A DNA stretch of 64,000 nt, from the NCBI RefSeq assembly GCF_058153355.1, contig NZ_CM177019.1; one strand, given 5' to 3'. Under the pieces are notes generated by a model. That model saw nothing but the letters and a program-made list of their open reading frames with translations, did no database searches and had not been told where the DNA came from. The position numbers and the translations under genes were made by a program. This document shows, piece after piece, positions 41,917 through 47,581 of the stretch; the stretch's first letter is position 1, and every line of letters begins with the position of its first letter.

Positions 41917-43461
41917 ATGGATGTCATTAAAAAGAAACATTGGTGGCAAAGCGACGCGCTGAAATGGTCAGTGTTAGGTCTGCTCGGCCTGCTGGTGGGT
42001 TACCTTGTTGTTTTAATGTACGCACAAGGGGAATACCTGTTCGCCATTACCACGCTGATATTGAGTTCAGCGGGGCTCTATATTTTCGCCAATCGTAAAG
42101 CCTACGCCTGGCGCTATGTCTATCCGGGAATGGCTGGGATGGGGCTATTCGTCCTTTTCCCTCTGGTCTGCACCATCGCCATTGCCTTCACCAACTACAG
42201 CAGCACTAACCAGCTGACTTTTGAACGTGCGCAGGAAGTGTTGTTAGATCGCTCCTGGCAAGCAGGCAAAACCTATAACTTTGGTCTTTACCCGGCGGGC
42301 GATGAGTGGCAACTGGCGATCAGCGACGGCGAAACTGGCAAAAATTACCTCTCCGACGCGTTTAAATTTGGCGGCGAGCAAAAACTGCAACTAAAAGAAA
42401 CAGCCGCCCAGCCTGAAGGCGAGCGCGCGAATCTGCGTGTGATTACCCAGAATCGTCAGGCACTGAGTGACATTACTGCCATTCTGCCGGATGGTAACAA
42501 AGTGATGATGAGCTCCCTGCGCCAGTTTTCTGGCACGCAGCCGCTCTACACACTCGACGGTGACGGCACGCTGACGAATAACCAGAGCGGTGTGAAATAT
42601 CGGCCGAATAACCAAATTGGTTTTTACCAGTCCATTACCGCCGACGGCAACTGGGGCGATGAAAAGTTAAGCCCCGGTTACACCGTGACCACCGGCTGGA
42701 AAAACTTTACCCGCGTCTTCACCGACGAAGGCATTCAGAAACCGTTCCTCGCCATTTTCGTCTGGACCGTGGTGTTCTCGCTAATCACCGTCTTTTTAAC
42801 AGTGGCAGTCGGCATGGTTCTGGCGTGTCTGGTGCAGTGGGAAGCGTTGCGCGGCAAAGCGGTCTATCGTGTCCTGCTGATTCTGCCCTACGCGGTGCCA
42901 TCGTTTATTTCAATCTTGATTTTCAAAGGGTTGTTTAACCAGAGCTTCGGTGAAATCAACATGATGTTGAGCGCGCTATTTGGCGTGAAGCCTGCCTGGT
43001 TTAGCGATCCGACCACTGCCCGCACGATGCTGATTATCGTCAACACCTGGCTGGGTTATCCGTACATGATGATCCTCTGCATGGGCTTGTTGAAAGCGAT
43101 TCCGGACGATCTGTATGAAGCCTCAGCAATGGATGGCGCAGGTCCATTCCAGAACTTCTTTAAAATTACGCTGCCGCTGCTGATTAAACCGCTCACACCG
43201 CTAATGATCGCCAGCTTCGCCTTTAACTTTAACAACTTCGTGCTGATTCAACTGTTAACTAACGGCGGCCCGGATCGTCTTGGCACTACCACGCCAGCCG
43301 GTTATACCGACCTGCTCGTTAACTACACCTACCGCATCGCCTTTGAAGGCGGCGGTGGTCAGGACTTCGGTCTGGCGGCGGCAATTGCCACGCTGATCTT
43401 CCTGCTGGTGGGTGCGCTGGCGATCGTCAACCTGAAAGCCACGCGAATGAAGTTTGATTAA
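41917..43461 (+). CDS. malF: maltose ABC transporter permease
   Basis: 514-aa from ATG 41917 ([17 protein letters not shown]...); large periplasmic loop, EAA motif region. Confidence 0.92.
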
Positions 43462-43475
43462 GGGAGATAACAAAA

Positions 43476-44366
43476 ATGGCAATGGTCCAACCGAAATCGC
43501 AAAAAGCACGTTTGTTTATTACTCATCTGCTACTGCTACTTTTTATCGCGGCGATTATGTTCCCGCTGCTGATGGTCGTCGCTATCTCTCTGCGTCAGGG
43601 GAACTTCGCGACTGGTAGCCTGATCCCGGAACAAATCTCCTGGGATCACTGGAAACTGGCGTTAGGTTTTAGCGTTGAACAGGCTGATGGGCGCATTACG
43701 CCACCGCCGTTCCCGGTACTGCTGTGGCTGTGGAACTCAGTAAAGGTCGCCGGAATTTCCGCGATTGGCATTGTTGCGCTATCCACCACCTGCGCCTACG
43801 CTTTCGCCCGTATGCGCTTTCCTGGTAAAGCGACACTGCTGAAAGGCATGCTGATTTTCCAGATGTTCCCGGCGGTGCTTTCACTGGTAGCGTTGTATGC
43901 GTTATTTGATCGTTTGGGTGAGTACATTCCATTCATCGGCCTGAATACTCACGGCGGCGTAATCTTCGCGTACCTGGGGGGGATTGCGCTGCATGTCTGG
44001 ACCATCAAAGGCTATTTCGAAACCATCGACAGTTCGCTGGAAGAAGCGGCGGCGCTGGATGGTGCAACACCGTGGCAGGCCTTCCGCCTTGTCCTGTTGC
44101 CGCTGTCAGTGCCGATTCTGGCGGTGGTGTTCATCCTGTCGTTTATCGCTGCCATTACTGAAGTTCCGGTCGCGTCGTTGTTACTGCGTGACGTAAACAG
44201 CTACACCCTGGCCGTGGGAATGCAGCAATACCTCAACCCGCAAAACTACCTGTGGGGTGACTTTGCCGCCGCTGCCGTGATGTCTGCATTACCGATCACC
44301 ATCGTCTTCTTGCTGGCTCAACGCTGGCTGGTCAACGGACTGACGGCAGGTGGTGTGAAAGGTTAA
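43476..44366 (+). CDS. malG: maltose ABC transporter permease
   Basis: 296-aa [35 protein letters not shown]... Confidence 0.95.
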
Positions 44367-44436
44367 AGATGTTGTTCTGCCAATGTTATGCCGCTACACC
44401 CTCAACTTACGTTATCCCAACTTGTGACTGTTATTC

Positions 44437-44461
44437 GGCGCTCTATGGAGCGCCTTTTTTT
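44437..44461 (+). terminator. intrinsic terminator after malG, overlapping the psiE stop codon
   Basis: ggcgctctatggagcgcc hairpin + T7. Confidence 0.75.
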
Positions 44462-44870
44462 ACTCCCGCTTCAGCCGTTTCGAATTACACAGCCATAAGG
44501 TGATCACCAGTAGCAGGATCGCTGCCGAGTAGATCAACACATCCAGTGGTGATTTATGATCGACGATGATCAAGCGCACAATGGCGGTGATCCCGATATA
44601 GACAAAGTAACGCAAGGGAAAGTGAAAACCGGACTGAAAGTACTTCACAATCAACGCGATAAATTCGAAATAGAGAAAGTAAACCACCAGCCCTTCCACC
44701 AGCTCATATTTGCTGGCTTGTTCTGGCGCGAACAGCACATCAGCCAGATGCACCGTTTCTTTGCCGAGGAAGACAACCAAAATCAGGCCGAGGCACAACA
44801 GGCCAAGATTGAGTACGGTCTGCAAAATGGTGGAGATAAACTCCACGCGCGGACGAGAGAGTGACGTCAT
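44460..44870 (-). CDS. psiE: phosphate-starvation-inducible membrane protein
   Basis: 136-aa from ATG 44870 ([25 protein letters not shown]...). Confidence 0.85.
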
Positions 44871-44983
44871 AGCAGTACCTCCTTCACAATGGCGAGGTTC
44901 CTGTATAACGTAAAAATGTGACGGAGATCTATATTTTTTGTGTATGTTTTGTTCAGATCGATTAAATGGGCATCTCCCAACCA

Positions 44984-45058
44984 ACGCCGGATGCGGCGTG
45001 AACGCCTTATCCGTCCTACCCGTAGGCCGGATAAGCCGCGCCTAGCGGCGCATCCGGC
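44984..45058. repeat. REP elements upstream of psiE
   Basis: gccggatgcggcgtgaacgccttatccgtcctac / gtaggccggataagccgcgcctagcggcgcatccggc. Confidence 0.7.
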
Positions 45059-45159
45059 AAGACAAACCGCACCATAGCCTCTAATGCAAAAATCACCCAT
45101 TCAGGTGATTCCCAGCCACCAGCAATGCGCGAAAAATCGACAATGTTCCTCTGGAACAA

Positions 45160-45438
45160 ATGAAACGTAACCTGATAAAGGTGGTAAAAATGAAGCCTTA
45201 TTTTGCTGCTTTGATGTTATCAGTCTCTGTCCTTCCTGCTTATGCTGGTCCGCTCGGTACTGCTGATAAAGCCGACTTACCGCAAAGCGGTGTCTCCAGC
45301 CCAATGATGGCCCAGTCGCTCAGGCAACCAGACCTGCAACCAATATCGACGGACAGGAAAACAGAATGTTTTCGCCTTTACACACCAGATCGCAAACCGG
45401 GGGTGAACTGCGTTCCTGATGGCTCGACAGGCCATTAA
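45160..45438 (+). CDS. yjbT: small putative periplasmic protein
   Basis: 92-aa ORF with signal-peptide-like N-terminus (KPYFAALMLSVSVLPAYA). Confidence 0.5.
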   Translation: MKRNLIKVVKMKPYFAALMLSVSVLPAYAGPLGTADKADLPQSGVSSPMMAQSLRQPDLQPISTDRKTECFRLYTPDRKPGVNCVPDGSTGH

Positions 45439-45484
45439 GAATGAAGGTGCCAGTGAGTGCGAAAACTGGCACCTTTCCTCTAAC

Positions 45485-47581
45485 TTAGCGGAAATTGACG
45501 CTTCGGTCGCTGGTCATGTCATACAACTGGAACTTACGCCCAAGTTGCTGACCACCGTCACGCGTCAGCGGCGTCCAGCCAATTGCCGCTCGGCTACGAG
45601 TCGGGCCAGACGAGAAGAGATCCAACGGTACAGAGATATACACGCCTTTGGTGAAGTCCCCTTCGCCGTACTCCTCTTTCGAAACATTCGTGATCGTGGC
45701 ATACCCACCCACTACCACGCCGCTATCAAAGCGTTTGGCGATTTCCAGCGTGCCGCCTTTATCCCCTGCCAGATATTGCCCGACGCTGGCTTTCACTAAC
45801 ACATCCTGAGCGAAAGATGGCGTCCAGTAGGCGGTCAGATGTCCGGTTTTCACGCTGTAATCGGTGAATTTCATCATATCTTTCGCGCTACGCCAGTCGC
45901 GCTGTTTAACGTAGTTAGCATCCAGACCAAACGCCCAGTTGCTATCCAGCGGGCGATACAACACCTCTGCCCCCACGCCGCCAAACATGGTTTCGAGATA
46001 ACCACCGTAGACCTGACCGTAGAAGCCGTTGCCCAGATGCTGGAAGTAGTTGGCTTGCAGGTTATTCACATAGACATCATTCTGCACATACTCACGCACA
46101 TGGGTACGAACGCGCGGTAAGTGCGAGTCCTGCGGTGGATTGGTGTAATTAAACTTGTCGTAATTGTTCGCCAGGTTAGCAAACAGGCTACCGGTGGTCA
46201 GCAGATGGTCCGTCAGCCACAAATCCGCCGTTCCCATCACGCCCAACTGGTACATGTAAAAGTTTTCCGGGCCACCGACCGACTGGTTCAGCACCGGATC
46301 GATATGGAAATCAAAGCGCGATTTGTCGATATACCAGCCCTGTTCGGTGGATGCAGGAACTACCGGCTCGACGCGTTTTTGCGCCAGCGTCGTTTCGTGG
46401 CCCAACGACTCTCCGGCAAGATGATTTTTCAGGCTGGCTACATCGGTTTCCGTCGTCACCTGCGGCATGTTAAGGCGATTTTCTGTAACGCGGATCGTCT
46501 TGATCCCCTCCGGCAGATCGTTCATCACGATCCGATTAGCACGGATGATCCCTTCACGCGAATCACGATATTTCACCTGCTCACCGGTGACGTACAGCGT
46601 ATCGCCTTTCGTCTGGATCTGCGGATCGGCCAGTCCGGCGTTGTATTTCAACAGCGTTAACTGATTCGCCACCACCGAATGCTGCAAAATGGCATCCTGT
46701 GGTTGCGGTTGATATTGCGGACGGGCGTTATCGTTGTAGGACGGCCGTAGATCGTTAAAGTTGGTGCGAAGCGTGACGCCAAACATAAAGGTGTTACCCC
46801 GTTCATAGCTAAGATTAACGTCGGCCCAATCGGTAACGCGATAAATCGCCCCGACGTTAAACTTACTTTTTTGCTCCAGCTTCCCGGCAAAATCCTGCTG
46901 ATAATTATTGCCTTCATACTCCAGTTTCAGACGCAGCGGCTGCCAAGGCGTCTGGTATTCCACGCCGCCAAACAGTGAGGCCGGACCGTGGAACATCTGG
47001 CTGCCGTCGATAGATCCCGCTTGTTTGTAGCTGTTATCGCGATAGCAATATTTGTCACTGGCTGAACAGAGCGGATTTTTCACGTTACCGCTGGTGCCCA
47101 GATATCCCCAGCCCAGGCCGAGCGTAAAATCGAATGGCCCCCAGGCTTTGCTGGCGACAAGATATTCCGCATCGAACAGCCCCGTACCGCCGATATCCCG
47201 CGCACCAACCGCCACCTGTGGCAGCCAGTAACTCTCTTCCCATAAACGCAGTTTGAGATCGAAGGCTTTATCTTTATACGTTTGATCACCAGAGAACGCT
47301 TCGACGCTGCTGTACTGCCGAGTGCGCACGTCGGTATAACGCAGCGTTGTTTCCAACCACGGGAAGAGTTGCACCGAAGCAGAGTAATAACGGTACTGAT
47401 CGTTATCGCGATAGTTCAGACTCAACTCCCCTTCCCGCGCCATGCGCGCGGTAGGTGTTTGTAATAATCCTACACCACCGAAATCCGATTGCGACGGACC
47501 AATAGGCGCAGGATATGTTTCGCCGTAGCAAGCCGTGCTAATGCCCAGCGCCAGTAAACTAAGCAGATGTCTTTTTTTCAT
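45485..47581 (-). CDS. yjbH: outer-membrane lipoprotein-like protein of yjbEFGH exopolysaccharide operon
   Basis: 698-aa ORF with signal peptide [20 protein letters not shown]; last gene of yjbEFGH. Confidence 0.85.

Follow-up and report, generated by a model that had tools for sequence, protein, structure and literature searches.

In Escherichia coli K-12 the xylE gene lies between malG and psiE. In the DNA analysed here, a stretch of 64,000 nucleotides of contig NZ_CM177019.1 (hereafter the window), malG and psiE are direct convergent neighbours. The question is whether xylE was lost from this place, was moved to another one, or had never been there. XylE is a low-affinity D-xylose/H+ symporter of the MFS sugar porter type, and XylFGH is the high-affinity ABC system for the same sugar.

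The gap had been pointed out in an earlier note, which gave the K-12 gene order with moderate certainty. That order proved right, as the MG1655 annotation reads yjbH-yjbT-psiE-xylE-MalH-malG-malF. The open reading frame coordinates likewise agree with convergent genes 93 bp apart (spacer 44367-44459). A tblastn search with K-12 XylE gave no match in the whole 64-kb window at E<=1e-3. Thus the absence of xylE between the two genes stands, and the locus is the xylE-less haplotype that is common in E. coli.

The features of the locus and of other regions that differ from K-12 are collected in Table 1. malG is the last gene of malEFG: it is preceded by malE and malF, and the RefSeq genomes that match it give the gene this name. 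psiE starts with ATG at 44870 and ends with a stop codon at 44460-44462, and its product is 99% identical to K-12 PsiE. The genes yjbT, yjbH and yjbG come next after psiE.

Table 1. Positions of features in the window, with the basis of each assignment
Feature	Position	Strand	Basis
malG, maltose ABC transporter permease	43476-44366	+	ORF list; 296 aa; 100% protein identity to K-12 MalG
MalH, malG 3'UTR-derived Hfq-dependent sRNA	44359-44461	+	Last 8 nt of malG, whole spacer and terminator; K-12 homology
Intrinsic terminator of malEFG/MalH	44437-44461	+	Terminator scan; 7-bp stem, 4-nt loop, T7
Breakpoint relative to K-12	44457-44461		TTTTT aligning to both ends of the K-12-specific 1,792-bp xylE cassette (BLAST)
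psiE, phosphate-starvation-inducible inner-membrane protein	44460-44870	-	ORF list; 136 aa; Pfam PsiE E=2.4e-22
IS110-family transposase ORF	33348-34523	+	Pfam DEDD_Tnp_IS110, Transposase_20
SopA-like pentapeptide-repeat protein	34992-36380	-	Adjoins the IS110 insertion; yjbI is a pseudogene in K-12
Zeta-toxin family protein	53488-54423	+	lysC-yjbD island
RlaP/pol-beta-type nucleotidyltransferase	54456-55256	-	lysC-yjbD island
SPFH/Band-7 (slipin) protein	55253-56380	-	lysC-yjbD island

The single intrinsic terminator described in the earlier note was recovered by the terminator scan as the sole terminator-like site in the spacer. It consists of the hairpin GGCGCTC-TATG-GAGCGCC (44437-44454), with six GC pairs among the seven, followed by TTTTTTT (44455-44461). 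The psiE stop codon reads TTA in reverse complement (44460-44462), and its TT is the end of this T-run; the overlap with psiE claimed before is thus real. The hairpin is contained in the minimum free energy fold. All seven pairs are retained in every one of 26 aligned enterobacterial sequences (182 cells, 100% paired), and at two of them compensatory changes of both bases (C-G to G-C; U-A to C-G) occur in seven of the 26 sequences. When the register is slid by one to three columns, just 33-61% of the cells are paired, and none of 500 shuffles reached the covariation score of the stem. Because the stem is conserved and carries compensatory changes, a chance match can be dismissed. Downstream of the hairpin on the minus strand stands GAATAACAG instead of a T-run, and the scan gives no terminator on this strand.

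The K-12 annotation places a non-coding RNA gene, malH (b4807), at 4242531-4242633, with an 8-nt overlap with malG and with its end at the operon terminator. Window positions 44359-44461 correspond to K-12 4242633-4242531, and the colinear alignment runs up to K-12 4242531, that is, to window position 44461. The two sequences agree in 100 of 103 nucleotides. The substitutions at 44444 and 44446 fall in the terminator loop; the G to A change at 44396 is the sole one in the body of the RNA and is common to E. whittamii and Escherichia sp. E1V33. Little or no variation is seen among the 26 enterobacterial sequences in the terminator and in the blocks GCCnCT..CCTC and TGTGACTGT. The MalH sequences of K-12 and CFT073 are the same. 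An Rfam search of 43000-46000 at E<=1 returned nothing for MalH; Rfam has no MalH family.

In K-12, MalH is an RNA of about 104 nt that spans the malG stop codon and ends at the Rho-independent terminator of the operon; it is released by RNase E processing and binds Hfq (PMC8081044). It was described as an Hfq-associated degradation intermediate, with ompC, ompA and MicA as targets (Iosub et al. 2020, PMC8081044). The candidate in the window resembles it in position (the start lies 8 nt inside malG), length, near-identical sequence and terminator hairpin. On the basis of the K-12 annotation, the sequence identity and the published description (PMC8081044), the 93-bp spacer is assigned as the body of the MalH sRNA, not as empty intergenic DNA, and an annotation of this genome should read MalH sRNA here instead of plain intergenic sequence. 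The difference from K-12 is that in the window haplotype the 3' end of the sRNA directly abuts a convergent coding sequence.

The breakpoint was located by BLAST of the window against K-12 4,219,000-4,300,000, which yields a series of colinear blocks. One block ends at window 44461 (K-12 4242531), and the following one begins at window 44457 (K-12 4240738), so that five bases, TTTTT, are common to both. The flanking genes, their order and orientation, and MalH with its terminator are the same in MG1655 as in the window, but MG1655 has an extra 1,792 bp between MalH and psiE. This K-12-only segment, 4240739-4242530, comprises 276 bp of an AT-rich xylE upstream region (34% GC), the xylE gene itself (1,476 bp), and 40 bp that hold the terminator of the gene. 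It is flanked by T-runs, T7 and T5, and in K-12 it is the T5 run of the xylE terminator, rather than the T-run of MalH, that overlaps the psiE stop codon. The spacer of the window contains no xylE coding sequence, remnant or scar: K-12 MalH accounts for all of its 93 bp, with psiE adjoining directly.

The haplotype of the window is frequent. Junction queries of 1 kb and of 261 bp each found an uninterrupted malG-psiE junction in 1,786 of 5,426 complete E. coli genomes, where a junction was scored as contiguous at >=80% coverage of the query. In the other genomes the match to the junction query breaks at query position 162, which is window position 44461. K-12 xylE was found in 3,638 of the 5,426 genomes, with a median copy number of 1 (maximum 2) and in nearly all cases on the chromosome. 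As 1,786 and 3,638 add up to 5,424 of 5,426, the two states complement each other almost completely. CFT073 (B2) and PCN033 belong to the strains without xylE, and both have the contiguous junction, the 93-bp spacer and T7 followed directly by ACTCCC, all as in the window. The gene is present in K-12, BL21(DE3), O157:H7, O111:H8, O22:H8 and O26. The strain-level difference in gene content proposed in the earlier note is real with respect to K-12, but it is not peculiar to this strain, since 1,786 of the 5,426 genomes are alike.

Less than 80% of xylE is covered in 14 of the 3,638 genomes that carry it. Independent inactivations were observed in xylE-positive strains: in 675SK2 (NZ_CP027701.1) the gene is interrupted by an IS1 insertion, and in TOE17 (NZ_CP069093.1) 17% of it is left.

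The xylE-less junction is a common presence/absence polymorphism, already known from the literature. In the genome paper of EAEC 042, xylE was reported absent and XylFGH present, with xylose metabolism and growth below those of MG1655 (Chaudhuri et al. 2010, PMC2808357); EAEC 042 is likened to the window by this published description, which covers the absence of xylE, the retention of XylFGH and the reduced xylose metabolism. In a phylogenomic study of 2019 xylE was among the transporters enriched in the B1A sublineage (PMC6896753). Salmonella is reported to be without xylE (PMC11610547). To the known absence the present analysis adds the identity of the spacer as MalH, the position of the breakpoint in the terminator T-run, and the probably derived state of K-12, which is considered below.

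The window itself looks like a part of a deep-branching, sparsely sampled lineage of E. coli, judging from the sequence comparisons that follow. Its identity to K-12 is only 92-96.7% throughout the colinear blocks. Against A, B1, B2, D and E strains, the identity of malG and of psiE is about 96%, compared with 98-99.5% among these strains. For CFT073 and PCN033, whose mutual identity is 98-99%, the identity to the window is 96.1% in malG and 96.6-96.8% in psiE. At the junction, identity of >=99% was found in just 17-18 of the 5,426 complete genomes, the best being R32_14_1F (from a goat) and 2013C-4282. In the neighbour-joining tree of malG the window and the near-identical R32_14_1F lie outside all the A, B1, B2, D and E strains sampled, and in the psiE tree both fall among other Escherichia species; the phylogroups in these comparisons are those of a handful of named strains, not of a tree of all genomes. 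In R32_14_1F, the nearest complete genome, iclR stands directly beside aceK and there is no arpA. No firm phylogroup was assigned to the window, as it ends inside metH, short of the arpA site, and its identity to K-12 is as low as given above.

The distribution of the two states outside E. coli bears on which of them is older. A scan of contigs with PsiE gave 80 species loci, of which 76 hold both psiE and a complete malG; no locus from Salmonella, Shigella, E. fergusonii or the E. coli representative is among the 80. xylE is absent between the two genes in 67 of the 76. Explicit enumeration showed exactly the arrangement of the window, a hairpin with a T-run overlapping the psiE stop codon, in 51 of these 67 loci, which come from more than 15 genera. 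Four of the 51 are Escherichia (E. albertii, E. whittamii, sp. E1V33 and MOD1-EC7003), with spacers of 92-94 bp that are near-identical to that of the window. The others include Enterobacter, Citrobacter koseri, Leclercia, Lelliottia, Silvania, Trabulsiella and Pluralibacter, as well as Klebsiella, Raoultella, Kosakonia, Buttiauxella and Cedecea. In Klebsiella, Raoultella and Kosakonia a repeat-like insert of about 100 bp was observed between the malG stop codon and the MalH core.

xylE lies between malG and psiE in the remaining nine of the 76 loci, namely in eight species of the Citrobacter freundii complex and in Klebsiella oxytoca. In these nine loci and in K-12 the cassette begins directly after a MalH-type terminator and ends with its own terminator adjoining the psiE stop codon. 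Its upstream region, gene and terminator are homologous in E. coli, the eight C. freundii-complex species and K. oxytoca, and the junctions are alike. Since all three parts are homologous and the junctions are the same, this comparison points to a single origin of the xylE cassette. Between E. coli and Citrobacter or K. oxytoca the divergence of xylE (82-85% nucleotide identity) is equal to that of the flanking malG, psiE and yjbH. Dating of the cassette by divergence was thus given up: as xylE is as diverged as its flanks, the value does not discriminate between insertion with subsequent transfer and vertical descent with loss. Nor was a tract of foreign recombination found beside the cassette in xylE-positive E. 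coli, where MalH does not differ between K-12 and CFT073 and identity in the flanks is 98-99.5%. The route by which the cassette entered E. coli is not visible, because its immediate flanks show no foreign tract.

One locus of the Citrobacter group does carry a scar. In Citrobacter braakii ATCC 51113 (L022, 4409-4796) the 382-bp spacer is what a deletion within the xylE cassette has left behind: after MalH and its terminator come some 110 bp from the region upstream of xylE and a piece from the 3' end of the gene, and the terminator of xylE then adjoins psiE. Other cargo was found in the same malG-psiE slot. Enterobacteriaceae bacterium RIT691 has a gene for a LysR-type regulator and one for a HAD-family hydrolase there (L058, 4397-6086), and Pseudescherichia vulneris has a gene for a Nudix-like hydrolase (L036, 4166-4630).

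The most trivial explanation of the contiguous junction is an assembly or sequencing artefact that collapsed the region. Its probability is negligible: complete assemblies of 1,786 genomes show the same junction independently, as do other species, and the window is colinear with K-12 on both sides to the last base. It is also very improbable that xylE is present in this strain at another place. The direct search for the gene covered only the 64-kb window, which holds no XylE-like sequence, and a copy farther away would have escaped it. However, all 17 genomes that are >=99% identical to the window at the junction have a contiguous junction, and 5,424 of 5,426 genomes are explained by either the junction (1,786) or xylE (3,638), which has a median of one copy and is almost always chromosomal. 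The complementary counts therefore indicate that in genomes with a contiguous junction xylE has not simply been relocated. Both explanations were rejected, relocation on the complementary genome counts and the artefact on the recurrence of the junction in independent assemblies.

A more serious, yet still unlikely, alternative is secondary loss. Here an xylE-positive ancestor would have lost the gene by a clean deletion between the T-runs (5-7 bp of microhomology) or by homologous replacement with an xylE-less Escherichia allele. As TTTTT is found at both ends of the K-12 cassette, the product of a precise excision would have the very sequence of the window. The absence of a scar is thus no strict proof against loss, because deletion between the T-runs regenerates the same junction. 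The divergence of xylE between genera, equal to that of the flanking core genes, also fits old vertical presence followed by many losses, and xylE is known to have been inactivated independently in xylE-positive strains (675SK2 and TOE17, and the 14 genomes with coverage below 80%). On the other hand, loss would require many identical precise deletions, given 51 xylE-less species in more than 15 genera and among them four other Escherichia, whereas the one demonstrable deletion, that of C. braakii, is imprecise and left 382 bp behind. Moreover, in the malG tree the lineage of the window lies outside the sampled E. coli phylogroups, and the representatives of B2 and D are without xylE as well.

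The preferred reading is primary absence: with good but not full confidence, we infer from this distribution that the window never acquired xylE and has kept the ancestral enterobacterial arrangement, so that the direction of the event would be gain elsewhere, not loss here. Because other Escherichia and more than 15 other genera share the xylE-less junction, absent is probably not the same as deleted. The same comparison suggests that the xylE-less junction is probably ancestral and the K-12 state derived. K-12 should not be taken as the ancestral reference for this locus, and the K-12 lineage more likely gained the seemingly missing gene by insertion.

A course of events consistent with primary absence can be proposed. 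The malEFG operon ends in a 3' UTR that is at the same time MalH, with a terminator so close to the convergent psiE gene that its T-run supplies two bases of the stop codon. The xylE of K-12 is a self-contained cassette of 1.8 kb, in which the gene comes together with an AT-rich promoter region and a terminator, and an old insertion would have placed this cassette exactly between the T-run of the MalH terminator and the psiE stop codon. It is now found in only a part of E. coli (among the strains sampled, those of A, B1 and E), in the C. freundii complex and in K. oxytoca.

As a tentative extension, for which the odds are somewhat unfavourable, Enterobacteriaceae may long and repeatedly have used the place directly after the MalH terminator, where psiE has its stop codon, as a slot for cargo. 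The xylE cassette would then be a single ancient insertion whose presence or absence is a trans-species polymorphism of E. coli, the C. freundii complex and K. oxytoca; homologous exchange through the highly conserved flanks, malG and psiE, would hand it on or take it out. If so, the choice of cargo would set which terminator abuts psiE and lies downstream of MalH.

Without xylE the strain is expected to have no low-affinity proton-coupled uptake of xylose, but it could still use the sugar by way of XylFGH. Altered uptake with retained use of xylose is expected in an xylE-less strain, in line with what was reported for EAEC 042 (PMC2808357). The xylFGH locus is far outside the window. A metabolic model of the strain should omit low-affinity xylose/H+ symport and assign xylose uptake to XylFGH, if it is encoded elsewhere in the genome. 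The practical value of the observation is small, and it does not advance an open question.

Several other differences from K-12 were observed in the window. Between lysC and yjbD there is an island of 3.4 kb (53350-56778) that is absent from K-12, which has 122 bp instead. It has three genes (Table 1) and may be a toxin or defence module. At the yjbI locus an insertion of 1.7 kb relative to K-12 was found at 33270-34987; it carries the IS110-family transposase ORF of Table 1, and the blocks on its two sides share 9 bp in their K-12 coordinates. Near yjbS, in the tyrB-aphA interval, about 200 bp (16832-17033) stand in place of about 975 bp of K-12, and in the yjbM area about 510 bp (24041-24550) have no megablast match to K-12. 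Finally, two REP-like palindromic units lie upstream of psiE, between psiE and yjbT (44970-45079), and correspond to sub-threshold matches to Rfam naRNA4 (E=0.003 and 0.06).
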